Counted from the stretch's first letter, positions 1 to 17,704 are shown. The stretch: DNA of 53,926 nt from Deltaproteobacteria bacterium (GCA_030262715.1 JAJSZR010000003.1:1-53926); one strand, 5' to 3'. The notes: generated by a model not told the origin, from the sequence alone. A program made the numbers and translations.

Positions 1-1
1 T

Positions 2-1093
2 CTTCTCAGCTTAAGCGTAAATGCAGCCGGTGATGTAATATTCGAAGAAGGTCCCGGAAAGTCATGCCTTACTTCGCAGCATATCCTGCCGGTTCCCCGG
101 ATATCCCGGCCCTGTTTCACTGCTTATGCCGTATCATCAAGTAAGTTCAATCAGAAAAATGTTGGGGGCAAATCCATCAACCTGAGGCACCTGCAGGGCA
201 AGTTGCCGGAATGGATATGTATTCCCAATTCAGTGGCCATGCCGTTCGGGGTTTTTGAAAAGGTGCTTGCCGGGAAAAACAACAAGGAAATTGCCGGGCA
301 TTATAATGAACTGATACTGCGAATAGACAAAAAGGCCGAAAAGGTGGATGTAGGGGTACTGAGTGAACTCCATAAGACCATCCTGGGTCTCAAGGCACCG
401 GATGATCTGGTCTCTGGCCTTCATAGGGTGATGGATGAGGCAGGGCTACCGTGGCCCTCAAACTGGGAAGATGCCTGGACATGTATCAAGGGTGTATGGG
501 GCTCCAAATGGAACGAGAGGGCACATCTAAGCCGCAGGACAAGAGGGATCCCCCATGCGGATCTCTTCATGGCGGTGCTCATTCAAGAGGTAGTCGAGGC
601 CGATTACAGTTTTGTGATCCACACTGTTAATCCCTCTACGGGCAACCAGGATGAGATCTATGCCGAGGTGGTCCCGGGCCTTGGGGAGACATTGGTCGGC
701 AATTATCCCGGAAAGGCCTTCAGCTTCACCTGCAGGAAGGGAAAAGATGAACCACAGCTTCTGGCTTTCCCGAGCAAGAGCGTTGCCCTTTTCGGCAGCG
801 GCCTGATCTTCCGTTCGGATTCCAATGGGGAAGACCTGGCTGGTTATGCTGGTGCCGGCCTTTACGACAGCATAATGTTGGAGCCGTCAGTCAAGGTTTC
901 CCTGGATTACACACGCGAATTGCTCGTGTGGAATGAGGATTTTCGAAAGGACTTTTTAGTCACTGTAGCCAATATCGGCACAGTTATTGAGAAAGCCATG
1001 GGCTCTGCCCAGGATATTGAAGGCGCTTACTCGAAAGGTCAATATTACGTTGTACAGACACGCCCGCAGGTAGGGATTGAAGATGGTATTTAA
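2..1093 (+). CDS. alpha-glucan,water dikinase (GWD)-like protein, C-terminal ATP-grasp nucleotide-binding domain; 5'-partial (runs off the left edge)
   Basis: Frame 2 has no stop from nt 2 to the TTG the ORF track used at 203, so the gene is truncated by the window. Upstream translation ends '...YAVSSSKFNQKNVGGKSINLRHLQGKLPEW', the canonical start of the PPDK_N-type ATP-grasp domain. Later blocks are 'WGSKWNERAHLSRR', 'FRSDSNGEDLAGYAGAGLYDS' and 'DIEGAYSKGQYYVVQTRPQV'. The sequence is collinear with the C-terminus of plant GWD as I recall it. Confidence 0.85.
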   Translation, partial: LLSLSVNAAGDVIFEEGPGKSCLTSQHILPVPRISRPCFTAYAVSSSKFNQKNVGGKSINLRHLQGKLPEWICIPNSVAMPFGVFEKVLAGKNNKEIAGHYNELILRIDKKAEKVDVGVLSELHKTILGLKAPDDLVSGLHRVMDEAGLPWPSNWEDAWTCIKGVWGSKWNERAHLSRRTRGIPHADLFMAVLIQEVVEADYSFVIHTVNPSTGNQDEIYAEVVPGLGETLVGNYPGKAFSFTCRKGKDEPQLLAFPSKSVALFGSGLIFRSDSNGEDLAGYAGAGLYDSIMLEPSVKVSLDYTRELLVWNEDFRKDFLVTVANIGTVIEKAMGSAQDIEGAYSKGQYYVVQTRPQVGIEDGI

Positions 1094-1151
1094 TCATGAG
1101 GTGGCCATCCGTTTTTTGAAAAAGAAAAAAGTGTAAACCGATAAATGAAGG

Positions 1152-4100
1152 ATGCCCCAAATGCATATCCGGATCGGCAATCAGAGCGCCTTCTCGGCCT
1201 CAACAGTGATACAACCCTTTGAGTATGCTGTGGCTAACGGTTTTGATGCCTTTGAGTGGTTTCCCGACAAAAAGGAATCAGGGGAAGGCTGGGCAGAAAT
1301 CGATATTGCTGAAGAGCAACGTGCCTTTATTAAGAAAACCGCCCTTGTCCATGACATATGCCTCTCGGTCCATGCCCCCTGGCAGGCAAATCCTTTAAGG
1401 CCGGAAAGTCGTGACATCTTCCTCAAAAATATTGAGTTTGCACAGGATATAGGCGCATCGCTCATCAATATACACCTTTATACTGATGAAGGTATTGCCT
1501 CCTATGTCCAGGCCATTGTTCCCCTGATAAAAGATCTGGCAAAGGCCGGGATTAAGCTTTCTATAGAAAATACACCCATTACCGGACCGCAGGATTTTAA
1601 TGAGTTGTTCAGGCAGCTTCTAGACCTCGACTCAACAGATATCGCTCATGTGGGAATGTGCCTGGACCTGGGACACGCCAACCTGTGCGAGGCAACCCTT
1701 AATGACTACCTCAAATTCATCGACCTGCTCGATTCCAGGGTCCCTATCATCCATATTCACCTGCATGAAAACTATGGAGACTACGACAGCCACCTGCCCC
1801 TGTTCACCGGCCCTGCAGGAAAAAATGACTTAGGCATAAAGGGGTTTATAGAGCGGATGGAAAGGCGCAACTTTTCAGGATGCATTATCTTCGAGCAGTG
1901 GCCGGAACCACCCGGTCTGCTCAATGATGCCCGCAACAGGCTGCTTAAGATGATCGGTATTTCAGAAAGACCCGCTATTGAGCCTAGCATGGCCCCTGGG
2001 AATGACTTTGTTAATATGATTGCCGGGGCGGACCGGAAGTGCCGAAGCTGGAGGGAGAAACTCAGCTGGATTGATCACTTGCTCTCTGATGACACATTTG
2101 AGCTTAACACAGAGCAACTCATTTACATGGCGATCTATCTCCGTTTCATAGGGACAGGTAAAATACCCTGTACTGAGGATGGGCGGCACTTTCGCCCATC
2201 TCATCATGCAAGGATGGCTCATCATATAGAGGACCATCTGTACAAAATTACCACCCCGGAAAATGTATTTATCATCAGGAGAATTTATCCATGGCTTCCA
2301 TCCTTTACCAGCAGCTTTACCAGGAAGGAACCGCTCACACGAATACGGGATATTGCTCACAGAAACGATATCCCCAAGGAGCTCAAGAAGGAGATCAAGA
2401 ATACGCTCCAGAACAAGCTGCACCGGTGCGCCGGCCCTGAGGACCTTGCCACCTCGGCGGCCCTGCTTAAAAGGATAACGGCCCCGGGTGCCGGTTATTC
2501 ACCCGATTTCATAAAGGAGTTCAGGGAGTTCCACAAGGAACTCAAGGAGTTTTTCAATGCCCGCTCTTTAGAGGAACAACTTGAAGCAATGCTCAGGGAG
2601 GGTAGCGCTAATTCCCATACGCTCGAGTTAATTCACAAATTCCTTAAAGCCAAAGAAAAAGCACATACACCCAAGGAGATGGTAACCAGTTTCGAGCTCT
2701 TGACAATGCTTCGCAGTCAATTCAGTGAAAAACTTAAAGAGAAAACCAGTTCCGAAGGACAAAAGCTCCAATTGACCGATATCAAGCTGGAGGACTTTTC
2801 TTTTGTCCTCTTGAGCCAACTGATCAACCTCTTTGATGCCTTGGGGAAAGAAATAAGCTGGTCGCCGGCCCTGCGCTGCCTGGAGCTTGCAATTGAAAAC
2901 TTGCGCCTCAGCGGCTTTGATACCGGAGAATGCCAGGCAATAGAATCCGAACTGGAGGCTTGGAGCAAAGATTTCAAACCTCGAGACCGTGAGCACCTTA
3001 TTCGGCTCAAAGCCACAATTGATCGATGCCGACGGCTGGTAGAAGTCTACTGTAATAGAATCCTATCCCTGTTTCCTGAAAAGGTCGAAAGACTTGGACA
3101 GGCACTGGGTGTGGCAAGACACAAGATAAAGATCTTCTGTGAGGTGGATATTCGAAGCCACCTGGTCTTCCAGCTCTCAAAACTTATTGTTCTGCTTTTA
3201 AAAGGCATCCGGAGGCTCGCTGCCTTGCCCCCATGGGATGTGATCGTACCGGGCAAGACCTCCGGCCGCCTGGTAGAGGCCGCATGCCTTGATGATTTAC
3301 CAAGTCCTTTTGACAAAGCGATCGTAGTTCTTATGGAAAAGGTGGAAGGCGATGAGGAGATCCCTGCAGGGGTGGTCGGCCTGATTGTTGCCCATGGAAC
3401 ACCTCTTCTTTCACACCTTGCGGTTCGGGCCAGACAGGGGGAAATCGTATTTATAGTATGCGAAGATGCAGATCGCTATGCAGAATTAAAAAATTCCCTT
3501 GGAAAGCAGCTCGTCCTGGATGTCTCTGCTGAAGAGGTGAGTCTGGGATTTTTCTCCGGCCCTGAGCAAGAAGCAGTGACTGAGAGAGAAAGGGAGGTCC
3601 GGCGGAAACGGGTTTGGGTACCTGATGTGCTCCTGTCCCCTGATCGCAAATTGTTGCCGTTGGATCAGGTAAGACCTGCAAATGGAGGCAGCAAGGCAGC
3701 AGCAGTAAGGCGGCTTGAAGAACTGTCGCAAATTGAGGAGGCAGGCTTTGTGACACCCCCTGGAGTTGTAGTTCCTTTTGGTGTCATGGAAGAGTCACTA
3801 CATAAGGCATCGGTCCTTGAACAAGAGTACCGGATGTTGGTCAGCCGGTTGAATAAACTGCCACAAAGTGATTTCTTTGAGGCCTTAAGGAAATTACAAG
3901 GTATTATCAGGCAGCTTGACGTACCCGATGAGACCGTCTCGGGAGTGATGGAAAAATTTCCACGAAATGAACGGCTGATGGTACGTTCCAGTGCAAACTG
4001 CGAGGATCTGGAAGGCCTGTCTGGGGCCGGGCTTTACGATTCAATTGCCAATGTGTCGCCACCTGAGGTAGCCCAGGCAGTGAGCAAGGTCTGGTCATCA

Positions 4101-4595
4101 CTGTGGACCAGGCGCGCGGCATTGAGCAGGAGAAAGCTCGGTATCCCTCATGACAGGGCCCACATGGCTGTGCTCATCCAGCAGATGATCGTCCCGGAAA
4201 TTTCATTCGTTATGCATACTCTCAATCCTGTAGCTCAACACCTGGATGAAGTTTATGTGGAACTGGCAGCAGGCCTGGGTGAAGCGTTGACTTCCGGCAG
4301 GACGCCGGGTGTTCCTTATCGAATGGTCTGCAATAAGCATACAGGAAGGGTGCGTATGCTGGCCTTTGCGAGTTTCAGTTATGCAATATGGCCCGGCCCT
4401 TCGGGGAGTCTTATCCAAAAAACAGTGGATTATTCCGGAATAGGGCTGTCAAAAGATAAAGTTTTTAGAAACCGCTTGGGAGGACATTTGGGGGCAATCG
4501 GCCGATTTGTGGAAGATTCAGTGGGAATGCCTCAGGATATTGAGGGACTTGTTCTGGAAGACAAGATCTATCTGGTTCAATCACGTCCGCAGTAA
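1152..4595 (+). CDS. fusion protein: N-terminal xylose-isomerase-like TIM barrel (AP_endonuc_2 type) + GWD-like helical region + phosphohistidine swivel domain + C-terminal ATP-grasp nucleotide-binding domain
   Basis: 1147-aa ORF. aa ~1-270 carry TIM-barrel metal-site blocks ('SVHAPW', 'LSIENTP', 'CLDLGHAN', 'IHIHLHENYGDYDSHLP', 'IIFEQW'). The middle has 'RIRDIAHRNDIPKELKKEIKNTLQNKLHRCAGPEDL...FHKELKEFFNA', which I recognise as a GWD signature. The His domain is 'GLIVAHGTPLLSHLAVRARQGEIVFIVCED'. The C-terminus has 'GGSKAAAVRRLEEL', 'MVRSSANCEDLEGLSGAGLYDS' and 'DIEGLVLEDKIYLVQSRPQ'. The ATG at 1161 has better spacing from the GAAGGA at 1146-1151 and may be the true start. Confidence 0.85.
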   Translation: MPQMHIRIGNQSAFSASTVIQPFEYAVANGFDAFEWFPDKKESGEGWAEIDIAEEQRAFIKKTALVHDICLSVHAPWQANPLRPESRDIFLKNIEFAQDIGASLINIHLYTDEGIASYVQAIVPLIKDLAKAGIKLSIENTPITGPQDFNELFRQLLDLDSTDIAHVGMCLDLGHANLCEATLNDYLKFIDLLDSRVPIIHIHLHENYGDYDSHLPLFTGPAGKNDLGIKGFIERMERRNFSGCIIFEQWPEPPGLLNDARNRLLKMIGISERPAIEPSMAPGNDFVNMIAGADRKCRSWREKLSWIDHLLSDDTFELNTEQLIYMAIYLRFIGTGKIPCTEDGRHFRPSHHARMAHHIEDHLYKITTPENVFIIRRIYPWLPSFTSSFTRKEPLTRIRDIAHRNDIPKELKKEIKNTLQNKLHRCAGPEDLATSAALLKRITAPGAGYSPDFIKEFREFHKELKEFFNARSLEEQLEAMLREGSANSHTLELIHKFLKAKEKAHTPKEMVTSFELLTMLRSQFSEKLKEKTSSEGQKLQLTDIKLEDFSFVLLSQLINLFDALGKEISWSPALRCLELAIENLRLSGFDTGECQAIESELEAWSKDFKPRDREHLIRLKATIDRCRRLVEVYCNRILSLFPEKVERLGQALGVARHKIKIFCEVDIRSHLVFQLSKLIVLLLKGIRRLAALPPWDVIVPGKTSGRLVEAACLDDLPSPFDKAIVVLMEKVEGDEEIPAGVVGLIVAHGTPLLSHLAVRARQGEIVFIVCEDADRYAELKNSLGKQLVLDVSAEEVSLGFFSGPEQEAVTEREREVRRKRVWVPDVLLSPDRKLLPLDQVRPANGGSKAAAVRRLEELSQIEEAGFVTPPGVVVPFGVMEESLHKASVLEQEYRMLVSRLNKLPQSDFFEALRKLQGIIRQLDVPDETVSGVMEKFPRNERLMVRSSANCEDLEGLSGAGLYDSIANVSPPEVAQAVSKVWSSLWTRRAALSRRKLGIPHDRAHMAVLIQQMIVPEISFVMHTLNPVAQHLDEVYVELAAGLGEALTSGRTPGVPYRMVCNKHTGRVRMLAFASFSYAIWPGPSGSLIQKTVDYSGIGLSKDKVFRNRLGGHLGAIGRFVEDSVGMPQDIEGLVLEDKIYLVQSRPQ

Positions 4596-4610
4596 GGAGT
4601 GTTTTAAAAA

Positions 4611-4887
4611 AACCGTTCAGGGGTTCAAAGGGTCAAGTGACAAGAAAAAAATGAACATCGAACATCGAACGTCCAACATCGAATTTTGAATGGGAAAAGA
4701 TGAAGAAACAGACTTATGACCTGGAAGAAAGGCTACTTATTAAAAAATCTGAACTACTAAATGATATTCTAGAGGAAACAGAAATAGCCGTTGAATGTTC
4801 GGTATCGGATATTTGTTTTTCGTTCGATGTTGGACGTTCGATGTTCGATGTTCGACGTTCATCTTTTAATGTAACCTGTGAACGGTT
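4611..4887. mobile_element. intergenic inverted-repeat element (MITE/IVS-like) carrying a remnant of a four-helix-bundle (23S rRNA intervening-sequence protein family) gene
   Basis: Termini are AACCGTTCA (4611-4619) and its complement TGAACGGTT (4879-4887). The left arm 4651-4683 (ATGAACA TCGAACA TCGAACG TCCAACA TCGAA) is complementary to the right arm 4823-4862, which holds one extra TCGAACA heptamer. The interior encodes 'KKQTYDLEERLL...' (ORF 4700..4906), an N-terminal fragment typical of that family. Confidence 0.6.
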
Positions 4888-4902
4888 ACAAAAATATCAG
4901 AC

Positions 4903-5958
4903 ATGAAAAACAATAGTCCTTTCCCGTGCCCGCCGTTGCTTGCACTTTTTCAGAAAAGGATTGATGGCGATGACGCCCTTCTGCATTTGGCCAATTTACG
5001 CTTTAAAGAGGCAGGTCTTGGGACCGAATTTTATGCAACAACACCAGTGGAGCTGGACTGGCTGCTGGAATTCAAGCCCAGGCCTGAAACCCCTGCAGTG
5101 GCTCATTTGCGCAGAGATATAAATCTGTTTGAGGAAGAAGGCCGCAACCTGGTCATGGATTTTGCCACAAAATTCAAAGACCAGATCTTTGGGCTGGTCA
5201 TCCATGATCAAACCGAAATCACAACCCGTCTTGACGATTATTTGGCCGCATTGCAGGAGATAGAGTCAAGATCGAAAAAGGTCCCGGGAAGCCCTTATCT
5301 TTTTGTAGAATATGCCGCAGGCCTGGAACCTGATTTCTTTATTGAAATCTTTAAGGCGGTACGAGATCTTGAACATGTAAGCGCCTGTATTGATATAGGC
5401 CATATCGGCATATGGCAAACAAGATCTGCCTATTCACTCAACCATCCGGGAAAGGAGGTGTGCGCCATCACGCCGAATGATCCTGAACTGCCGGAGGTGA
5501 TCAGAGATGTCCAGAGTGCGGTTGATTCCGGATTAGACGCAGTGCTTCATGTAATTCGGGCCCTTGGCCGCTTAGAAAAACCATTGCATTTTCATTTGCA
5601 TGATGGACATCCGCTTTCCACCTTCAGTCCCTTTGGGATCTCTGACCACCTGAGTTTCCTGGTTGAAATTCCGATACCTTTTGAATACAAAGGCAGAAGA
5701 TCTCTTGATCCGATGTTCGGACCTTCAGGTCTTTCAAGGATAGTCACTGAATCATTGCAACTGCTGGGTCCGGATCGAGTTTCTTTTACACTTGAGATTC
5801 ATCCAACAGAAGGAAGGCTTCCTCTTGCTAATGCTTCTTACCTGTTTAATCACTGGAGAGACAAAACAAATGCGGAAAGGATGAACTATTGGCTGTCGAT
5901 TCTTGCTCAAAATCATAAACTGCTATTTGATATAGCCGTAAAAAGGATAGCGCTGTGA
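4903..5958 (+). CDS. xylose-isomerase-like TIM barrel protein (sugar phosphate isomerase/epimerase / AP_endonuc_2 superfamily), function unknown
   Basis: 351-aa ORF. Blocks 'FGLVIHDQ', 'LFVEYAAG', 'ACIDIGHIGIW' and 'LHFHLHDGHPLS...SDHLSF' parallel the metal-ligand blocks of the TIM-barrel domain in 1152..4595. Its stop overlaps the GTG start of the next gene (GTGA at 5955-5958). Confidence 0.55.
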   Translation: MKNNSPFPCPPLLALFQKRIDGDDALLHLANLRFKEAGLGTEFYATTPVELDWLLEFKPRPETPAVAHLRRDINLFEEEGRNLVMDFATKFKDQIFGLVIHDQTEITTRLDDYLAALQEIESRSKKVPGSPYLFVEYAAGLEPDFFIEIFKAVRDLEHVSACIDIGHIGIWQTRSAYSLNHPGKEVCAITPNDPELPEVIRDVQSAVDSGLDAVLHVIRALGRLEKPLHFHLHDGHPLSTFSPFGISDHLSFLVEIPIPFEYKGRRSLDPMFGPSGLSRIVTESLQLLGPDRVSFTLEIHPTEGRLPLANASYLFNHWRDKTNAERMNYWLSILAQNHKLLFDIAVKRIAL

Positions 5959-7259
5959 AAAAACCTGAAAAGATGATCATCTATAACCTGTTTCCCTTAT
6001 TGGCCGGAAAGTTCACAGACTGGGAAAGGCATTTATTGAGGGCATCTGAAATGGGCTTCAATTGGGTCTTTGTCAATCCCATTCAGCGTCCAGGTGAGTC
6101 GGGCAGCCTTTACTCAATAATGGATTATTATGATTTCAACCCTGTTTTAGTTGACCAAAAAAGTAAAAAAGCACCTCAGGAACAGGCAAAAGAGGCGATC
6201 AAGACCGCAAAAAAACTAGGTCTCAATGCAATGGTTGACCTGGTAATCAACCACTGTTCTGTAGATTCGGACCTGATTAAATCACACCCCGAATGGTTTC
6301 TATGGGAGTCCAGGGGTCACGTGGCCCATCCCTTCTGTGATGAAGACGGAAAAAAGGTGGTCTGGAAAGACCTGGCAAAATTCGATCACAGAGATACAAT
6401 GGATAAAGAGGGACTTTTTCAATACTTTCTCAATATAGTGAAATTCTTGATTGAATTGGGTTTTAGGGGATTTCGCTGTGACGCCGCTTATCAGGTCCCC
6501 AAAAGGCTGTGGGAAAGGCTCATTAAGGAGATAAAAAAGGGTCATCCTGAGATCGTCTTTTTTGCGGAGACACTCGGTTGCCCGTCAGACCAGACCAGAA
6601 GGACCGCCAGCGCCGGTTTTGATTATATATTCAATAGCTCCAAATGGTGGGATTTCAACAGCCCGTGGTTGATGGCACAATATGCCCTTACGCGAGAAGT
6701 TGTCCCTTCTATCAGCTTTCCTGAAAGCCACGATACTGTGAGACTCTGCGAGGAACTTCATGGCAACATCGAAGGGCTTAAACAACGCTATCTGTTTTCA
6801 GCCCTGTTTTCAGCGGGTGTCATGATGCCCATGGGATTTGAATTCGGTTTTTGTAAAAGGTTTCATGTGGTGAAAACCAGACCGGAAGATTGGGAAGAAA
6901 CAGACATTGATCTGGCCGCTTTCATTACTGAGGTCAACAAGTTGAAGTCGAATCAGGCAATCTTTCAGGAAGAGGCCCCTACAGAGATATTGTATGCCGG
7001 CAATCCAAATATCCTGCTCATGTGGAAGGCATCCATCAATGATCAAGAAGAGGCATTGCTGATTCTCAACAAGGACATTTATAACAAACAGCATTTTTAT
7101 GCGGAAAGCCTGCAGGAATTTATCCAGGCAGGAGCCCCGCTCAGTGATCTCTCTCCAGAATACCCAATGGAGTATATCCCGGTGCCATTTTCATACGATC
7201 TCCGGCCGGGACAAGGGATCGTACTGATCACTTCAAGAGATTTGATTCAGGATGATTGA
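5955..7259 (+). CDS. GH13 alpha-amylase-family catalytic-domain protein (GlgE-like sequence blocks)
   Basis: GH13 regions are present: I 'DLVINHCS', II 'GFRGFRCDAAYQVP', III 'VFFAETLG', IV 'SFPESHDT'. The N-terminal 'IYNLFPLLAG...MGFNWVFVNPIQRPGESGSLYS' and 'HPEWF' blocks resemble GlgE-type maltosyltransferases as I recall them. Confidence 0.8.
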   Translation: MKKPEKMIIYNLFPLLAGKFTDWERHLLRASEMGFNWVFVNPIQRPGESGSLYSIMDYYDFNPVLVDQKSKKAPQEQAKEAIKTAKKLGLNAMVDLVINHCSVDSDLIKSHPEWFLWESRGHVAHPFCDEDGKKVVWKDLAKFDHRDTMDKEGLFQYFLNIVKFLIELGFRGFRCDAAYQVPKRLWERLIKEIKKGHPEIVFFAETLGCPSDQTRRTASAGFDYIFNSSKWWDFNSPWLMAQYALTREVVPSISFPESHDTVRLCEELHGNIEGLKQRYLFSALFSAGVMMPMGFEFGFCKRFHVVKTRPEDWEETDIDLAAFITEVNKLKSNQAIFQEEAPTEILYAGNPNILLMWKASINDQEEALLILNKDIYNKQHFYAESLQEFIQAGAPLSDLSPEYPMEYIPVPFSYDLRPGQGIVLITSRDLIQDD

Positions 7260-7393
7260 ATCAATAGTAATTGAGTTTTCCCTGGATTTTTTGTAACCTT
7301 GGCCGGTGTGTCTTTATTCATTATGGTGGTTTTACACCGAGAGCTAAGGAGTTGTCCATATAAGCCAAGCAGTGGCTGGCGAAAGAGGGCGAA

Positions 7394-8122
7394 TTGATAA
7401 AGTCAATAGAAAGCAAAGACATCGAAAGGCCGAAATCCTACAATCCAGGATCTGAGAAACAGGAAAAAGCAAAACAATCAGATTTTGAAGCTTCCCAGGA
7501 TACCCAAGGACTCACCCGGGATTCCATAGATTTTCGCAACCTGTACGAAGAATACTGCGAAAGCCGGGTCGTTTTGCTTCCTGTGGAGCCCTACCTGATC
7601 CATGCCTACTGGGATGTTACCCATAACGACATCGAGAAGGCGAAACAGCGGCTGGGTGATGACTATAGAAAATCACAGGCCATCTTGAGATTCTATGATG
7701 TCACTAACATCATTTATGACGGTACAAATGCCCATGGTTTTTTCGACGTGGATATAGATCTTCAATCCCAAAACTGGTACGTAGATCTCTGGAGCCCGGA
7801 TAAATCATACTTTGTTGATTTAGGATTTAAGACCGGAGATGGTTTCTTCCTCCCGGTAACCCGGTCAAGTGTTGCCAGGACACCTTGTGCCTGGCCTGCC
7901 CCCAAAGCTGACGAACACTACATGTCCGTGGCAGAGGATGAAGAAGGCCTGTCAAAAATCGAAGTTCCTGAAAAACCTTTGCCTCAAAGCATTCAAGCTC
8001 GATATGAAAAACGAGTAGATTTTGATCTCACGGAAATGAGCGAGAAAGCATTCACACTTGGCATATCCTCAGAATTTATCTCGTCGACACAGGGAAAGAA
8101 CGATTCTGCTGACAGGCTTTGA
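7394..8122 (+). CDS. DUF4912 domain protein (usual partner of GH57 branching enzymes)
   Basis: 'VVLLPVEPYLIHAYWDV' is the characteristic DUF4912 opening. Its stop overlaps the start of the GH57 gene (8119-8122). Confidence 0.6.
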   Translation: MIKSIESKDIERPKSYNPGSEKQEKAKQSDFEASQDTQGLTRDSIDFRNLYEEYCESRVVLLPVEPYLIHAYWDVTHNDIEKAKQRLGDDYRKSQAILRFYDVTNIIYDGTNAHGFFDVDIDLQSQNWYVDLWSPDKSYFVDLGFKTGDGFFLPVTRSSVARTPCAWPAPKADEHYMSVAEDEEGLSKIEVPEKPLPQSIQARYEKRVDFDLTEMSEKAFTLGISSEFISSTQGKNDSADRL

Positions 8123-9705
8123 AGATGGAAAAAGGTTATTTAGCGATAGTCCTTCATGCACACCTCCCTTTTGTGAGGCACCCTGAACATGTGGATTCCC
8201 TGGAAGAAAACTGGGTTTTCGAAGCCATTACCGATACGTACATCCCTCTCCTTTCCGTACTGGATGGTCTTGTAGAAGATGGGATTGACTTTCGATTGAC
8301 CTTGTCAATCACACCCACTCTTGCCTCAATGTTCGCCGATCCGTTCTTGCAGTCCCGTTATCTGGACAGACTTGAACGACTGATAGAGCTGGGCAAGAAA
8401 GAAGTCAAACGAACAAGATACCACCACGAGTTTAATATACTGGCTCTGATGTATCACAGACGCCTTTTAAAAGTGCGTAAAGCATTCCTTAACCGTTATA
8501 ATCTGAACCTGGTTCAGGCCTTTAAACGCTTACAGGAGCTTGGGAAGGTAGAAATCATCGCCAGCGCTGCCACTCACGGATACCTTCCACTGCTTTCTGT
8601 TAATACATCGGCTGTTCGAGCACAAATTCGGGTCGGAATCAAAAATTATAAACAGGTATTCGGTCGAAATCCCAAGGGCTTCTGGTTACCCGAATGCGGC
8701 TATTATCCCGGAGTTGACGAGCTTCTCAGGCAAGATGGCATTCGCTACACTATTTTAGAGACTCACGGTATCACTCGTGCTGGACCAAGACCAAAATATG
8801 GTGTGTACGCACCGATCTATTGTCCATCAGGAGTAGCTGCCTTCGGGCGTGATCCTGAATCGTCCAAGCAGGTCTGGAGTTCAATAGAAGGATATCCAGG
8901 AGATTATGATTACCGGGAATTCTATCGTGACATCGCCTACGATCTGGATCTTGATTATATCAAGCCCTATATTCATAGAGACGGCATCCGAGTGGACACC
9001 GGCTTCAAGTACTTCCGCGTCACCGGCAAAAACAATCATAAAGAGGTCTATGTTCCCAAAAGGGCAAAGAGAAAAGCCGAGATCCACGCAGGGGATTTCA
9101 TGTTTAACAGGGAAAAACAGATTGAATATCTGGCTTCGGTCATGAATCGCAAGCCCATAATTGTGGCACCTTACGATGCTGAACTGTTCGGCCATTGGTG
9201 GTTTGAAGGCCCTGACTGGCTTAATCGCCTGATTCGTAAGATCGACTCGGAACAAAAAACGTTCCGGCTTATTACCCTTTCCGAATATCTGGAAGAATAC
9301 CCGATCAGTCAGGTTTCAGCACCTTCCACTTCCAGTTGGGGATACAAGGGCTTTCACGAAACCTGGCTCAATGGGACAAACGACTGGATCTACCGCCAAC
9401 TGCATCAGGGGGCGCAGTTTATGGAGAGGCTGGCAACGAATCATCCCACAGCCGAGGGCCTCACTCTGAGGGCGCTCAATCAAGCGGCAAGAGAGCTGCT
9501 GGTAGCACAGGCGAGTGACTGGGCCTTTATGATCAACTCGGGCGCTATGGCAGAGTATGGGACTCGACGGACAAAGACGCACCTCTTGCGACTGGGCAGG
9601 CTCATGAGAGAAATTGAAGACCGGAAGATAGATGAAGGCTGGCTTTCAATGATTGAGAGCCAGGATAACATTTTTCCACAGATTGATTACCGCTCTTATG
9701 CCTAA
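8119..9705 (+). CDS. GH57-family 1,4-alpha-glucan branching enzyme (GH57 N-domain + DUF1957 C-domain)
   Basis: 'GYLAIVLHAHLPFVRHPE', 'TPTLASM', 'HGYLPLL', 'GFWLPECGY' and 'PYDAELFGHWWFEG' are GH57 branching-enzyme signatures. Confidence 0.85.
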   Translation: MKMEKGYLAIVLHAHLPFVRHPEHVDSLEENWVFEAITDTYIPLLSVLDGLVEDGIDFRLTLSITPTLASMFADPFLQSRYLDRLERLIELGKKEVKRTRYHHEFNILALMYHRRLLKVRKAFLNRYNLNLVQAFKRLQELGKVEIIASAATHGYLPLLSVNTSAVRAQIRVGIKNYKQVFGRNPKGFWLPECGYYPGVDELLRQDGIRYTILETHGITRAGPRPKYGVYAPIYCPSGVAAFGRDPESSKQVWSSIEGYPGDYDYREFYRDIAYDLDLDYIKPYIHRDGIRVDTGFKYFRVTGKNNHKEVYVPKRAKRKAEIHAGDFMFNREKQIEYLASVMNRKPIIVAPYDAELFGHWWFEGPDWLNRLIRKIDSEQKTFRLITLSEYLEEYPISQVSAPSTSSWGYKGFHETWLNGTNDWIYRQLHQGAQFMERLATNHPTAEGLTLRALNQAARELLVAQASDWAFMINSGAMAEYGTRRTKTHLLRLGRLMREIEDRKIDEGWLSMIESQDNIFPQIDYRSYA

Positions 9706-9712
9706 ATTGAGC

Positions 9713-9740
9713 AATTAGCTGTTAGCCATTAGCGTTTAGC
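9713..9740. repeat. 4 x 7-bp periodic tract (AATTAGC TGTTAGC CATTAGC GTTTAGC), solo arm-like sequence
   Basis: Read directly. It lies 8 nt after the GH57 stop, between the GH57 gene and glgA. It has the same 7-bp periodicity as the arms of the two inverted-repeat elements, but no complementary partner lies nearby. Confidence 0.6.
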
Positions 9741-9826
9741 TTTGGAAAGAGGGACTTTCGTTTTATGAAGGATGCCGAATTCATCAATGATCGAGTGGTA
9801 ATATCCGGAAACAGAGGTCTAATGGC

Positions 9827-11293
9827 ATGTATGTCGTGATGATTACTCCAGAGTGCGCTCCGGTTGCGAAAGTTGGGGGTTTGGGCGACGTTGTTCAGGG
9901 TCTTTCCCATGAGCTCGCAATACGGGGGAATACTGTAGAGATTATCCTCCCTAAATACGATTGCATGCGGTACGATCTAATTTTCGGTCTCCATAAGACA
10001 TACTCTGATCTCAGGGTCCCTTACCATGATCAACATTTTTATTGCGATGTATATTTTGGTTTTGTGGATGGGCTAAAATGCTTCTTTATTGAATCCCACT
10101 CTTTTAAGAATTTCTTCAATCGGGGCATATTTTACGGACATCATGATGATCCTGAACGTTTTGCCTTTTTTTGCCGGGCAGCATTGGAGTTTATGCTAAA
10201 GACGAACAAGCATCCTGAAATTATCCATTGCCATGATTGGCAGACCGGACTTGTGCCGGTACTTCTGTTTGATATGTATAAATATTTGGGAATGACCCAC
10301 CCCAGGGTCTGCTATACCTTGCACAATCTTAAACATCAGGGTGTCACAGGGGAACACATACTCAGGCAGGTCGGCCTGAATCCTGCCAAGTATATCACTC
10401 CGGACCGGCTTCAGGATAACTTTAACCACAGTGCTATCAACTTCATGAAGGGAGGAATTGTCTATTCTAACTTTGTGACAACTGTTTCTCCCCGATATGC
10501 CAGGGAGATAAAAAATTCAGACCTTGGCTTTGGGCTCCAGCATACCCTTCATGTGCATAGCATTAAATTTGGAGGGGTCTTGAACGGAATTGATTACAAT
10601 GTATGGAATCCTGAAATCGATCCATATATATCGTGTCGGTATACAATTGATAGCATTAATGATAAATACAAAAATAAAGAGGCCCTCCGTAATAGACTAT
10701 GGCTAAGACACGACTTCAAACCGATTGTCTCTGTGATAGGTCGATTAGATCATCAAAAAGGTGTTGATTTAATACGGCATGGTATTTTTTATTCTTTGGC
10801 AAACGGTTGCCAGTTTGTCCTGTTAGGGTCGAGTCCTGAACCAGCTACCAATAATGATTTTTGGGGGCTAAAGCACTATTTGAATGATAACCCGGACTGC
10901 CACCTTGAAATCTCATACAATGAGGAATTAGCCCATCTGATTTATGCAGGTGCCGACATGATTCTCATACCAAGCGCATTTGAACCGTGCGGCCTGACAC
11001 AGATGATCGCCATGAAATGCGGAACAGTTCCCATTGTTCGAAATACCGGTGGATTGGCAGACACAGTCTTTGACGCAGATTATGCCCAAAAACCATATCA
11101 TGAACGTAATGGCTATGTGTTTAATGATTTTGATAATGAAGGCCTCGAGTCTGCTCTGAAACGGGCTATAGGCCTGTGGTATATCTATCCCAAATATTTT
11201 AGGGAACTGATGATTAATGGGATGCGATATGACTATTCCTGGAACCATCCTGCAGGACATTATCTAAATATTTACAATTATATCAGGGAGTAA
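9827..11293 (+). CDS. glgA: glycogen/starch synthase (GT5)
   Basis: The N-terminal 'ECAPVAKVGGLGDVV' (KxGGL motif), 'HCHDWQTGL' and 'IPSAFEPCGLTQM' are canonical GlgA blocks. Confidence 0.9.
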   Translation: MYVVMITPECAPVAKVGGLGDVVQGLSHELAIRGNTVEIILPKYDCMRYDLIFGLHKTYSDLRVPYHDQHFYCDVYFGFVDGLKCFFIESHSFKNFFNRGIFYGHHDDPERFAFFCRAALEFMLKTNKHPEIIHCHDWQTGLVPVLLFDMYKYLGMTHPRVCYTLHNLKHQGVTGEHILRQVGLNPAKYITPDRLQDNFNHSAINFMKGGIVYSNFVTTVSPRYAREIKNSDLGFGLQHTLHVHSIKFGGVLNGIDYNVWNPEIDPYISCRYTIDSINDKYKNKEALRNRLWLRHDFKPIVSVIGRLDHQKGVDLIRHGIFYSLANGCQFVLLGSSPEPATNNDFWGLKHYLNDNPDCHLEISYNEELAHLIYAGADMILIPSAFEPCGLTQMIAMKCGTVPIVRNTGGLADTVFDADYAQKPYHERNGYVFNDFDNEGLESALKRAIGLWYIYPKYFRELMINGMRYDYSWNHPAGHYLNIYNYIRE

Positions 11294-11302
11294 AAAATAG
11301 GG

Positions 11303-12856
11303 CTATCCCTTCATCATCTCATCCACGGAGGGGAATCTGGTAAGATCGGTATGGGGAAGAAAAAGGGCCCCGGTTAGCTGGTTCATAAAATCTTTGCGCA
11401 CATTCATCTCGAGATAAGTTATCTTGTCGCAGATCTCCTCTACCTCTTTTCTGGCTTTTCTCCACGTAAGGGCCTCAATCGCCCCGGTACCTGCGGCATT
11501 TCTCAGGCCCTCAAAGCGCTCAAGAGGCACATCAGGCAACATCCCAATTATTATGGCCTTTTTGGGATCTATATAATTGCCAAAGGCACCCGCAACATAA
11601 AACCTCTCGATATCCTCAAACCCGATACCAACGCTCTGGATTACCACGTTCAGTATAGTGTGCATGGCCCCTTTTGAACGAATCAGGTTTTTTATATCGC
11701 TCTGACTGATATAGACCGGCTCCCCATGGCCTGTCTCATGAGGACCTGCCACAACATAGACCCATTCCCCACCTATCCGTTGCATCCTGGCACTATCCCG
11801 ATCCACCACAAGCTTTCCGGTTGGGTCCACCAGTCCTGCAACAAACATGGCTGCCAGGAGATCTATTATTCCTGAACCACACAATCCCTCCGGGGCCTTG
11901 CCGTCTATGGTACGATATCTGACTGTCAAAAGAGTTCGGTCTATGTCCAACCGGTCTATGGCCCCTGGCTTTGCCATCATACCACAGGAGGAAATTCCCC
12001 CTTCAAGTGCCGGGCCGGCCGCCCCTGCACAGGCCACGAGCCAGTCCCTGTTTCCCAGCACTACCTCTGCATTGGTGCCAACATCCACGAGCATGGAGAT
12101 CTCCTCCTTGAGGTGCATGCCAGAGGCCAGGATGCCTGCCAGAAGATCACCGCCAAAGTAACTCCCCACGTTTGGAAAACAATAGAGCCATGCCTGAGGA
12201 TGGACATTTATTCCTAATTCCCAGGGCCGGATCAGATCAAAGCGGTTAACCACGGGAATGTATGGTTCCCGGCAGATATGGCCTGGATCAAGACCTAAAA
12301 AGAAGTGGCACATAGTGGTGTTGCCGGCCAATGCAATAAAGGATATATCCTCCGGGCTCATGCCTCCTCCTGCCGTAATCTCCTGTACAGAGGAATTAAA
12401 AAGGCCAACGACCTCAGACTGTAGTGTCTCCAATCCATTGCCTTGCCCAGCAAAGAGGATCCTTTCCAGGATGTCCTCACCGTGGACCCTTTGCGGGTTG
12501 GGTTTTGATAGAGTAGAAACGGTCTCGCCTGAACCAAGGTCTACCAGGTAAAATACCACGGTGGTGCTTCCAAGGTCCACAGCCAGTCCGTAAGGCGACA
12601 GAGATTTGCTTTTAACGCTGACCTGGGCGACCTCCCAGCCGGAAGGTCCATCCAGCACCAATGTTTGCACCTTGTAGTCAGAGGAGGGGAGAATGTCAGG
12701 CAGGCATTTGCAGATCTTTAAAGGGAACAGAGGTGGTTGCCCCAGGATAGGCTCCAAGGCCGCTCTTACACGTGACTCGTGACTGCGGTTGTCGCTAAGA
12801 GACGGGCTGGGGAGATCCAGGCTGATTGCGCGGCATACAGGGTCAAAACGGTCCAT
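11303..12856 (-). CDS. ASKHA-fold ATPase, DUF4445 / RACo-like (corrinoid-protein reductive-activase family) without an obvious N-terminal ferredoxin domain
   Basis: 'LAVDLGSTTVVFYLVDL', 'IALAGNTTMCHFFLGLDP', 'LVDVGTNAEVVLGN' and 'CAGAAGPALEGG' are DUF4445/ASKHA phosphate-binding motifs. Confidence 0.7.
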   Translation of the reverse strand: MDRFDPVCRAISLDLPSPSLSDNRSHESRVRAALEPILGQPPLFPLKICKCLPDILPSSDYKVQTLVLDGPSGWEVAQVSVKSKSLSPYGLAVDLGSTTVVFYLVDLGSGETVSTLSKPNPQRVHGEDILERILFAGQGNGLETLQSEVVGLFNSSVQEITAGGGMSPEDISFIALAGNTTMCHFFLGLDPGHICREPYIPVVNRFDLIRPWELGINVHPQAWLYCFPNVGSYFGGDLLAGILASGMHLKEEISMLVDVGTNAEVVLGNRDWLVACAGAAGPALEGGISSCGMMAKPGAIDRLDIDRTLLTVRYRTIDGKAPEGLCGSGIIDLLAAMFVAGLVDPTGKLVVDRDSARMQRIGGEWVYVVAGPHETGHGEPVYISQSDIKNLIRSKGAMHTILNVVIQSVGIGFEDIERFYVAGAFGNYIDPKKAIIIGMLPDVPLERFEGLRNAAGTGAIEALTWRKARKEVEEICDKITYLEMNVRKDFMNQLTGALFLPHTDLTRFPSVDEMMKG

Positions 12857-16492: not shown

Positions 16493-17704
16493 ATGAAAGA
16501 GCCGCGAATTTCCCATATACTGTCATTTTGTATATTTTTCATTTTTCTTATAATTCCATTTTTAGCTAGTGCGGCTGTGCTTAAGCTGGCCTGGGATCCC
16601 AGTACTGAACAAAATTTGGCAGGGTATAAGATATACTACGGCTATGCCAGTGGAGATTATGATACTTCTATAGATGTAGGCAATACCACAACCTTTCAAA
16701 TTACAGACCTGGAGTATGATCAAACCTATTATTTTGCCACAACTGCCTACGATACTTCAGGTTTAGAAAGCGATTATTCTAATGAGATAAGCTGTACAAT
16801 CCCAAAATCAGATTCAGACAGAGATGATTTAACAGAGGAAGACGAGATCAATATCTATGGGACAGACCCCAACAGCCCTGATACCGATAAAGATGCTATC
16901 AATGATGGGGATGAAGTAGCCTTTTGGGGATATAATTGGGATATGGATTATGATAACGATGGTATTATCAATCTTTTAGATCCAGATTCTGACAATGATG
17001 GTTTTTTAGATGGTCTAGAGACCATTTACGGATTTGATCCCTCTGATCCATACTCCAGACCCCCGTCTCAAAGTGATGGCCTATTCGTTTGTGATGCGGA
17101 AGAAGGTGATAATTCCGATTTTGATGGAACCTTCACACAAGGTTTAAATACATTTACTGCGACTGAAAGCGCAAAAAATAATGGTAATTACGGATATGCC
17201 GCAGGCTTTGACGGTTCAAGTGACGAAGTCTATGCGTATAAGGACTTTTCGGATCAAAGCGATGTCTATGCCAGGTTCTACTTCAAGATCACAAATGATT
17301 TTCACCTGGAAGGTGATTGGGTAAAAATACCGGTATTTCAGTTAATGGATGGGGGCACCTCTTTAGTTATTTTCTATTTATTAGAGGCTAATTCAGGAGA
17401 ATATGGATGGAGTGCTGAATTGTGGAATCCTTATGCGCCCATAGCAGGTGAGTGGCGTGGTCTTAGGGCTAATAGATGGTATATGATCGAAATCAGATGG
17501 AAACAAGATCCCTTGGAGGGTGGAGCTGAAATTTGGATAGACGATGTGCCTATGGGCAGCGTTTATACAGAAGATACATCCATGCAAAATGCCAATAGTA
17601 TCCAAGTTGGAAGAGGCTATTCAGGTGACGGCGATCCGGGTGTTCTTGTAACCTCAGGCGCTATATATTTCGATGATGTAAGGGTTGATACTTCACATAA
17701 GTAG
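16493..17704 (+). CDS. secreted protein: signal peptide + FN3-like domain + thrombospondin-type-3-like Ca-binding repeats + C-terminal LamG/concanavalin-like domain
   Basis: The signal peptide is 'ILSFCIFFIFLIIPFLASAA'. 'LAWDPSTEQNLAGYKIYYG...YYFATTAYDTSGLESDYSNE' is FN3-like. The D-rich repeats are 'GTDPNSPDTDKDAINDGDE' and 'DYDNDGIINLLDPDSDNDGFLDGLE'. The tail '...IWIDDVPMG...IYFDDVRVD' is typical of LamG-like beta-sandwiches. Confidence 0.7.
   Translation: MKEPRISHILSFCIFFIFLIIPFLASAAVLKLAWDPSTEQNLAGYKIYYGYASGDYDTSIDVGNTTTFQITDLEYDQTYYFATTAYDTSGLESDYSNEISCTIPKSDSDRDDLTEEDEINIYGTDPNSPDTDKDAINDGDEVAFWGYNWDMDYDNDGIINLLDPDSDNDGFLDGLETIYGFDPSDPYSRPPSQSDGLFVCDAEEGDNSDFDGTFTQGLNTFTATESAKNNGNYGYAAGFDGSSDEVYAYKDFSDQSDVYARFYFKITNDFHLEGDWVKIPVFQLMDGGTSLVIFYLLEANSGEYGWSAELWNPYAPIAGEWRGLRANRWYMIEIRWKQDPLEGGAEIWIDDVPMGSVYTEDTSMQNANSIQVGRGYSGDGDPGVLVTSGAIYFDDVRVDTSHK

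Follow-up and report, generated by a model that had tools for sequence, protein, structure and literature searches.

Tandem GWD- and PWD-type dikinases ahead of bacterial glycogen synthesis genes: a putative glucan-phosphorylation module

Introduction

Glucan phosphorylation by the dikinases GWD (alpha-glucan, water dikinase) and PWD (phosphoglucan, water dikinase) counts as a hallmark of eukaryotes that store starch. A stretch of 53,926 nucleotides from Deltaproteobacteria bacterium (GCA_030262715.1 JAJSZR010000003.1:1-53926), referred to in its whole length as the window and numbered from its first letter, opens with two tandem genes of the GWD and PWD types and continues with genes of glycogen synthesis. 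The question raised by this locus is whether a bacterium, here one resembling sulfate reducers, could phosphorylate its storage glucan. The homology and gene order described below suggest that some bacteria do, and we read the 5' end of the window, with moderate confidence, as a bacterial glucan-phosphorylation module placed ahead of glycogen synthesis genes. The sequences themselves establish the domain content, the orthology, the conserved synteny and the fusions. By analogy with plants, we infer that a glucan would be the substrate, that C6 would be modified before C3, and that the role would lie in mobilisation of the polymer.

In the plant pathway, GWD phosphorylates C6 and PWD then phosphorylates C3 of the pre-phosphorylated glucan, via a catalytic histidine (PMC12892837). 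Some bacterial sequences were included in the GWD tree of the Goniomonas genome paper, whose Fig. 9 legend suggested lateral gene transfer (Cenci 2018, PMC6260743), and the text of that paper limits known GWD to organisms that accumulate starch (PMC6260743). Neither dikinases nor GWD nor glucan phosphate are mentioned in a 2024 review on the alpha-glucan enzymes of prokaryotes, and phosphorylation of bacterial glycogen is treated as an open question in a 2025 paper (PMC13011383). The open-access literature yielded no account of the operon, of the barrel fusion or of a function, although one in a subscription journal is possible. A preliminary description of this DNA put covalent phosphorylation of a bacterial storage glucan, which it saw suggested by the two-dikinase set, outside described bacterial glycogen metabolism; textbooks of bacterial glycogen indeed lack it, but bacterial GWD homologues were already present in the tree figure of PMC6260743 and in JGI's automatic names, which read alpha-glucan,water dikinase and phosphoglucan,water dikinase for the two families. 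New here are the predicted bacterial GWD/PWD module with its conserved gene order, the swap of CBM20 for a barrel, and a second barrel partner.

The two dikinases

The dikinase features at the 5' end of the window are as follows, with the basis of each assignment in brackets (ORF, open reading frame).

2-1093, + strand: gene 1 (ORF1), GWD1-type dikinase, C-terminal 363 residues (Pfam, orthology)
1152-4595, + strand: gene 2 (ORF2), TIM barrel plus PWD-type core, complete, 1147 residues (Pfam, orthology)
1152-1991, + strand: N-terminal TIM barrel of gene 2, residues 1-280 (Pfam, AlphaFold)
2340-2561, + strand: PWD-signature block of gene 2, central helical region (alignment with plant PWD)
3234-3545, + strand: phosphohistidine domain of gene 2, residues 695-798 (Pfam GWD1_pHisD)
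3414-3416, + strand: codon of the catalytic His755 of gene 2 (alignment)
3687-4592, + strand: ATP-grasp nucleotide-binding domain of gene 2, residues 846-1147 (Pfam PPDK_N)

Gene 1 enters the window as a linker and an ATP-grasp domain (PPDK_N, 3.8e-28) ending in ...GQYYVVQTRPQVGIEDGI* at position 1093; its N-terminal two thirds lie outside. The fragment is 49% identical to residues 1035-1399 of Arabidopsis GWD1 (E 1e-108; entry P0412, with the database name alpha-glucan, water dikinase), and only 26% identical to one plant PWD. Three close-relative contigs (L001, L002 and L003), with the same gene order and 90-92% DNA identity over positions 1-11293, contain the complete gene 1, which encodes 1031-1032 residues; the window fragment is 88% identical to residues 676-1031 of the full-length L001 orthologue. 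The latter carries Ig_N_CWD1 (PF23166, CBM45-like, 2.7e-20), GWD1_pHisD (residues 578-687) and PPDK_N reaching the C-terminus. It is 42% identical to Arabidopsis GWD1 (AtGWD1) over 1060 residues; this alignment spans AtGWD1 from its second CBM45 region through the final residue, and another, weaker one covers the first CBM45 region. Its catalytic-histidine motif VSHIAIRARN, which for ORF1 lies beyond the window edge, aligns with LSHVSVRARN of AtGWD1.

By these alignments gene 1 is an orthologue of plant GWD1 (SEX1, R1; EC 2.7.9.4). Its full-length relatives (88-92% identical) share with the plant enzyme a CBM45-like Ig domain, a helical core, a phosphohistidine domain, a C-terminal ATP-grasp and the ...SH(I/V)x(I/V)RARN motif. 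However, the bacterial proteins have one CBM45-like domain instead of two, are ~1030 residues long against ~1400 in the plant, lack a transit peptide and retain a single Cys of the plant CFATC redox motif (LFATCYD), and the bacterial gene sits in an operon beside a PWD-type gene.

In gene 2, GWD1_pHisD (PF22973, residues 695-798, 3.1e-25) lies upstream of PPDK_N (residues 846-1147, 5e-37), directly after which comes the stop codon (IYLVQSRPQ*); no domain of the phosphoenolpyruvate (PEP) utilizer type (PF00391, PF02896) was detected in ORF2 by Pfam. The Pfam matches of both ORFs are much stronger than chance would give. The peptide GTPLLSHLAVRARQGEIVF occupies residues 749-767, RIRDIAHRNDIPKELKKEIKNTLQNKLHRCAGPEDL residues 397-432 and FHKELKEFFNA residues 460-470. 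The signature block RIRDIAHRNDIP...LHRCAGPEDL ... FHKELKEFFNA is nearly invariant among bacterial homologues and matches plant PWD almost residue for residue in an alignment with the Cucurbita enzyme, to which ORF2 is 38% identical over 941 columns. Residues 288-1147 are 39-44% identical to algal and eukaryotic CBM20-type PWDs (~860 residues), and His755, invariant in 18-26 homologues, aligns with the histidine of LSHLGVRARQ in plant PWD. The ATP-grasp of ORF2 matches those of PEP synthase and rifampicin phosphotransferase (Rph) in the PDB (~1e-26); PDB sequence searches with the dikinases returned no solved GWD or PWD, and a 2026 review describes a high-resolution structure of either as still missing (PMC12892837).

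A scan of 1.84 billion cluster representatives with gene 2 gave 524 clusters at E <= 1e-30, and the best 150 of these were labelled by N- and C-terminal domain. They form three groups: bacterial TIM-barrel proteins, proteins with the gene 3 domain (see below) fused C-terminally, and CBM20 forms, the last being eukaryotic (named PWDs of Porphyridium and Cucurbita, and proteins of Chlorokybus, Mesotaenium and Bryopsis). The architecture of TIM barrel plus PWD core was found in all 120 of the 120 best database homologues. Pfam detected no CBM_20 or CBM45 in ORF2, and no CBM_20 in any TIM-type bacterial representative. Because it lacks CBM20, ORF2 is classed as a PWD-core homologue with another N-domain and not as a canonical PWD. 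Candidate bacterial CBM20 PWDs on two metagenomic contigs of 50-57 kb were rejected, their neighbours being eukaryotic (ribosomal S19e, UNC-50, glutathione (GSH) synthase).

Gene 2 is accordingly compared with PWD (GWD3, EC 2.7.9.5) over its core. Residues 288-1147 span the whole of that core at 38-44% identity, with the RIRDIAHRNDIP...LHRxAGPEDL block, the LSHL(A/G)VRARQ histidine and the ATP-grasp, whereas the CBM20 of the eukaryotic enzyme is swapped for a putative metal-site TIM barrel and some bacterial proteins carry a second barrel fused at the C-terminus. On this likeness gene 2 is an orthologue of plant PWD.

A neighbour-joining (NJ) tree was built from 112 proteins over 742 columns (100 bootstraps; no PEP synthase outgroup, and GWD1 sampled from angiosperms only). 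GWD-type proteins (bacterial gene 1 and plant GWD1) were separated from PWD-type proteins (bacterial gene 2 and eukaryotic PWD) in 100/100 bootstraps. Bacterial GWDs form one clan in 94/100 bootstraps; eukaryotic PWDs form one in 50/100 and are placed among bacterial forms, the bacterial PWDs being as diverse as the eukaryotic ones. Backbone branches are 0.005-0.05 long, too short for the direction of transfer to be read. A family of 1205-1213 residues found on contigs of up to 600 kb (P0331), which joins a GWD-type Ig_N_CWD1 N-domain to a PWD-like core, clusters with eukaryotic PWDs in this tree.

Pfam, identity to the plant enzymes and the NJ tree thus agree with the preliminary description in placing two tandem GWD-type homologues here, and the sequence of a GWD followed by a PWD is well founded by orthology. 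The peptides quoted for both ORFs were all found in their places. Both ORFs end in ATP-grasp, as had been proposed (PPDK_N, 3.8e-28 in ORF1 and 5e-37 in ORF2), and the phosphohistidine segment of ORF2 does precede it (GWD1_pHisD at 695-798). The block 'RIRDIAHRNDIPKELKKEIKNTLQNKLHRCAGPEDL...FHKELKEFFNA', put forward as a family signature, aligns with plant PWD and is nearly invariant in bacteria. The reported lack of CBM45 and CBM20 in ORF2 is matched by Pfam, a CBM45-like Ig_N_CWD1 being found in full-length ORF1 orthologues. The dikinase domains of ORF2 had been recognised correctly, but its N-terminal TIM barrel (residues 23-256) had been overlooked.

Gene order, distribution and fusions

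Downstream of the dikinases the window continues with the following genes.

4903-5958, + strand: gene 3, 351 residues, putative second, divergent metal-site TIM barrel (hhalign, AlphaFold)
5955-7259, + strand: gene 4, GH13 alpha-amylase family (Pfam, PDB match)
7394-8122, + strand: gene 5, DUF4912 protein (Pfam PF16258, 1e-32)
8119-9705, + strand: gene 6, GH57 1,4-alpha-glucan branching enzyme (Pfam, NCBIfam)
9827-11293, + strand: gene 7, glycogen synthase GlgA (NCBIfam, Pfam)

Genes 1-7 are co-directional and tightly packed (spacers of 58, 307, -4, 134, -4 and 121 bp), the start of gene 4 overlapping the stop of gene 3 by 4 bp. Gene 4 matches hDGE_amylase (2.5e-24) and Alpha-amylase (3.3e-9) in Pfam, has as its top PDB match the alpha-amylase 4gkl (3.8e-20), followed by GlgE and a maltodextrin glycosyltransferase, and retains the GH13 region II motif GFRGFRCDAA. 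Gene 6 matches Glyco_hydro_57 (2.4e-41), BE_C (3e-33) and the NCBIfam branching-enzyme models (1e-101), and gene 7 scores 890 bits against NCBIfam NF001905 (cut-off 560) and 3.4e-70 against Glyco_transf_5. The earlier gene list (GH13, DUF4912, GH57 and GlgA) is borne out, except that the gene at 4903-5958 had been skipped.

Relatives of gene 2 were found in 272 genomes, almost all metagenome-assembled genomes (MAGs), in a species scan with one genome per GTDB species. Carriers are Thermodesulfobacteriota, Nitrospirota, Verrucomicrobiota, Planctomycetota, Chloroflexota, Acidobacteriota, Myxococcota and several Gammaproteobacteria, and include a Seep-SRB2 MAG (89% identity), magnetotactic Nitrospirota and anammox Planctomycetota. 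Gene order was counted in 80 fetched loci, the denominators being the loci with enough flank. A GWD-type gene stands directly upstream of gene 2 in 52/62 loci, gene 3 directly downstream in 64/68, and a GH13 gene next past gene 3 in 33/55; GH57 and DUF4912 each occur in the neighbourhood in 14/58 loci and GlgA in 18/58. Gene 3 accompanies gene 2 more constantly than any other gene, and the order GWD, TIM-PWD, TIM2 (gene 3) is kept across at least eight bacterial phyla. On these counts the conserved core consists of GWD, TIM-PWD, gene 3 and often GH13, and the full 'glycogen operon' of the window is one variant of this conserved module. The glycogen operon of the preliminary description therefore stands as a co-directional, tight cluster in the window, but no more than about one in four related loci keep its glgA/GH57 part.

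In 9/62 loci no GWD-type gene was found in the ~9-10 kb upstream of TIM-PWD; these are L004 (Seep-SRB2 MAG E20, PQXE01000019), L018, L032, L033, L044, L050, L056, L065 and L074. In L024 the GWD-type gene lies elsewhere in the locus. Because L004, the closest named genome, and eight other loci lack gene 1 upstream, the GWD/PWD pair is taken as frequent and not obligatory.

Gene fusions follow the same partners. TIM-PWD-gene 3 fusions of ~1490 residues occur in 12/120 of the best gene 2 homologues, PWD-core-gene 3 fusions in ~10 representatives, and gene 3-GH13 fusions of 782 residues in several Nitrospirota. These are Rosetta-stone links that join the gene 3 barrel, the dikinase and the amylase. 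Examples from Nitrospirota and Thermodesulfovibrionales MAGs are L078:15059-17404, L036:13450-15795 and L014:9983-14449, comprising gene 3-GH13 (782 residues) and TIM-PWD-gene 3 (1489 residues) proteins.

The barrel domains

The N-domain of gene 2 belongs by Pfam to the AP_endonuc_2/xylose-isomerase-like family (PF01261, residues 23-256, 1.4e-24), and its AlphaFold model (pLDDT 87.6) consists of 8 beta/alpha units. The invariant residues H74, H108, E139, D172, H175, H201/203/205, D212, H214 and E248 lie at the C-terminal ends of model strands 3-8. In Foldseek searches the best match was 3wqo (MJ1311), followed by the xylose-isomerase-like superfamily at TM-scores of 0.6-0.7, with African swine fever virus (ASFV) and bacterial endonuclease IV (Endo IV), ketose 3-epimerases, YcjR and DgpB-C as neighbours. 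Comparison of the model does not separate Endo IV-type from epimerase-type relatives. The preference for a phosphoesterase is drawn from sequence profiles only, structure being undecided.

A profile built from 28 barrels was searched against the PDB. It matched MJ1311 at 3.6e-13, Endo IV of Mycobacterium tuberculosis (Mtb) at 1.7e-5, the ASFV AP endonuclease at 1.6e-3 and E. coli Endo IV at 2.9e-3, with sugar epimerases above 0.1. H74, H108, E139, D172, H175, H203, D212 and H214 align on positions of Mtb and E. coli Endo IV, and E248 falls on the Glu in the last strand of MJ1311. The E. coli residues in this alignment include H109, E145, D179 and H182, which we take to be ligands of the trinuclear zinc site, the ligand set being presumably H69, H109, E145, D179, H182, H216, D229, H231 and E261. 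NCBIfam matches of the barrel are confined to CbiR phosphodiesterase (1.2e-6) and deoxyribonuclease IV (2.4e-4). CbiR is a cobamide phosphodiesterase, an example of non-DNA phosphoester hydrolysis within the AP_endonuc_2 superfamily (PMC7733943). The gene 2 barrel shares with Endo IV, CbiR and MJ1311 the superfamily fold and, as far as the alignments suggest, the strand-end His/Asp/Glu pattern on Endo IV ligand positions; it differs in its low identity to them (15-20%), its fusion to a glucan dikinase and the absence of a DNA-repair context.

Gene 3 gave no Pfam match and no PDB sequence match, whether as a single sequence or as a profile, and in this divergence it also stands apart from Endo IV, CbiR and MJ1311. 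By hhalign, its family aligns with the gene 2 barrel family at 96.5% probability (E 8.5e-10, 130 columns), and its AlphaFold model (pLDDT 78) is a beta/alpha barrel. The invariant residues H68, H101, E136, D164, H167, H229/231/233, D248, H249 and E298 parallel the set of the gene 2 barrel. Gene 3 may thus encode a second, divergent metal-site barrel akin to the N-domain of gene 2.

A possible phosphorylation cycle and its alternatives

In the proposed mechanism, ATP would be bound in the C-terminal ATP-grasp of each dikinase. The conserved histidine (His755 in gene 2) would take up the beta-phosphate of ATP and hand it on to a hydroxyl group on a glucosyl residue of an alpha-1,4/1,6-glucan, with release of AMP and inorganic phosphate. 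The GWD-type enzyme of gene 1 would phosphorylate C6 first, and the PWD-type enzyme of gene 2 would then phosphorylate C3 of the pre-phosphorylated glucan. Phosphorylation would loosen packed double helices, and the polymer would therefore be open to degradation by the GH13 enzyme of gene 4. In the reading preferred here, the gene 2 barrel and gene 3 might be metal-dependent phosphoesterases that remove glucan-bound phosphates, in the role of the plant phosphatases SEX4 and LSF2, so letting degradation proceed; of all steps, phosphatase activity of the barrels is the one suggested most weakly. The likeness to SEX4, LSF2 and laforin lies in this proposed role only, namely removal of C6 and C3 phosphate for continued exo-amylolysis (plant pathway: PMC12892837). 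SEX4, LSF2 and laforin have a dual-specificity phosphatase fold, whereas the candidates here are predicted metal-dependent TIM barrels related to them in neither sequence nor fold.

Several points weigh against this reading. Activity, substrate and regiospecificity are predicted from orthology and adjacency only, and GlgA, GH57 and DUF4912 lie near gene 2 in just 14-18/58 related loci. Bacterial glycogen is normally soluble, which calls the need for phosphorylation into question, and gene 2 has no recognised carbohydrate-binding module. A kinase fused to an opposing phosphatase would risk a futile cycle. Among the structural neighbours of the gene 2 barrel (TM 0.6-0.7), sugar epimerases and isomerases are as numerous as Endo IV, and for MJ1311, the nearest solved relative, no functional literature was found among open-access papers. 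Foldseek placed gene 3 with generic TIM barrels only (KDO8P synthase, class II aldolase, GH164; TM <= 0.43), its link to the superfamily resting on one profile-profile match of 130 columns.

Among the alternatives, one would leave the dikinases as enzymes of an alpha-glucan but make the barrels isomerases/epimerases, dehydratases or a substrate-binding platform that replaces CBM20, and their substrates could be released sugars or modified glucosyl residues. It is unlikely but deserves serious attention, for the AP_endonuc_2 superfamily covers very diverse functions (PMC7733943), the barrel takes the exact place of the CBM20 of eukaryotic PWD, and D-psicose/tagatose 3-epimerases, the 3-keto-D-glucoside 4-epimerase YcjR and the C-glycoside deglycosidase DgpB-C are Foldseek neighbours with E-values like those of Endo IV. 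By sequence profile, however, the Endo IV clade outscores the epimerases, and NCBIfam matches of the barrel are phosphodiesterases only. At least seven histidines are invariant, as in the trinuclear Endo IV site, whereas ketose epimerases have a four-residue Glu-Asp-His-Glu site, and a pure binding role needs no invariant metal ligands. The module could also act in synthesis, phosphorylation tuning how the glucan made by GlgA and GH57 branches, how large its granules are or how well it dissolves. The shared direction of the dikinases, GlgA and the branching enzyme in the window fits this, as does the finding that branching enzymes, bacterial through human, have a reduced affinity for their substrate when phosphate is bound to the glucan (PMC13011383); but in the relatives it is gene 3 and GH13 that recur constantly, not GlgA and GH57, and gene 3-GH13 fusions point to degradation, which makes a role in synthesis improbable.

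The remaining alternatives concern what the genes are and where they come from. NCBI names for relatives ('TIM barrel protein', 'PEP/pyruvate-binding domain-containing protein', 'phosphoenolpyruvate synthase', hypothetical) would suit PEP synthase/PPDK or Rph-type enzymes acting on a small molecule beside glycogen genes by chance, and the ATP-grasp does match PEP synthase and Rph models at 1e-26 to 1e-38, being homologous to theirs within a shared phosphohistidine swivel mechanism. However, the NCBIfam matches are confined to the ATP-grasp part, at 130 bits at best against cut-offs of 598-1700 (6-10 fold under every cut-off). The window dikinases have the reversed domain order, His then ATP-grasp, without a PEP-utilizer or TIM PEP/pyruvate domain; they resemble plant GWD1 and PWD end to end (38-49% identity), and conserved synteny and fusions tie them to alpha-glucan enzymes. 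This identity was rejected by the domain and homology tests and is given very little credence; the earlier assignment to GWD/PWD and not to PEP synthase, PPDK or Rph is upheld by homology, NCBIfam scores and the 100% bootstrap split of GWD and PWD types. One could suspect that the genes stem from eukaryotic contaminants, from a chimeric assembly or from an alga by recent transfer without function, as GWD/PWD had been placed only in eukaryotes that accumulate starch and lateral transfer was the suggested source of their bacterial copies (PMC6260743). Against this, the operon lies on bacterial contigs reaching 4.7 Mb and in 272 genomes at species level, its genes overlap in bacterial style and have fusion partners known here from bacteria only (TIM, gene 3), catalytic residues stay unchanged over a range of 42-90% identity, bacterial GWDs are monophyletic with 94% bootstrap, and bacterial PWDs equal the eukaryotic ones in diversity. 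Contamination or chimerism was rejected, as the operon recurs in dozens of bacterial MAGs, and it is practically dismissed here; the eukaryote/bacterium chimera considered in the preliminary description likewise falls away before dozens of MAGs with the same gene order and overlapping start and stop codons.

The glucan-phosphorylation module can be extended to a bolder proposal, which is possible though doubtful: the barrels would form a new class of metal-dependent glucan phosphatases and, with a GWD, a PWD and a GH13 amylase, make up a complete bacterial cycle in which glucan phosphorylation is reversible, and the eukaryotic GWD/PWD pair would stem from the bacterial tandem. Such descent is conceivable because the two genes are adjacent in many phyla. 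It runs opposite to the algae-to-bacteria transfer suggested in PMC6260743, and the NJ tree gives no support for or against it.

If true, the phosphorylation module would add to bacterial storage-glucan metabolism a step that is missing from glycogen textbooks, and would hint at a less soluble glucan in some anaerobes such as Seep-SRB2-related sulfate reducers, Nitrospirota and anammox bacteria. It would reopen the origin of starch phosphorylation as a question and bring forward two candidate phosphatases of new fold. Moreover, smaller, intron-free and partly thermophile-derived orthologues would be available for the missing GWD and PWD structures.

Other features of the window

4596-4902, strand not assigned: 307-bp spacer with inverted repeat between gene 2 and gene 3 (comparison with relatives)

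Scans of positions 1-12000 for promoters and terminators gave the same counts as in shuffled sequence. The spacer between gene 2 and gene 3 contains a 31-nucleotide perfect inverted repeat (4653-4683 / 4823-4853, arms 139 nucleotides apart) made of GAACATCGAAC-like units that bracket a short ORF-like stretch. The repeat is present as a single copy within the window and is missing in the 90-92% identical L001 and L002, where gene 3 begins 3 bp past gene 2, so that the 307-bp spacer is an insertion by comparison. A small inserted element or a hairpin is the probable explanation.

Directly past glgA, a RACo/AcsV corrinoid reductive activase gene lies on the opposite strand (11303-12856, -), whereas the closest relatives carry rpoD and dnaG there (L001:19882-23344, L002:13399-16682); synteny therefore ends exactly at the 3' end of glgA. 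A c-di-GMP-I-GGC riboswitch (RF03167, 16343-16433, + strand, 68.4 bits, E 3.9e-14) lies directly upstream of a 403-residue ORF without Pfam match (16493-17704), which is adjoined by a beta-helix/NosD-like protein (17770-19461). From ~19500 to ~39600, on the - strand, extends a large exopolysaccharide biosynthesis cluster. It comprises FemAB-like and GNAT genes, a polysaccharide deacetylase, GT2, Wzy and a flippase, together with DUF354, a DegT aminotransferase, a sugar transferase, a TSP3-repeat protein, and Wzz/GNVR and AAA ATPases. Its guanine plus cytosine (GC) content is 38-44%, against 46-50% in the glucan locus.

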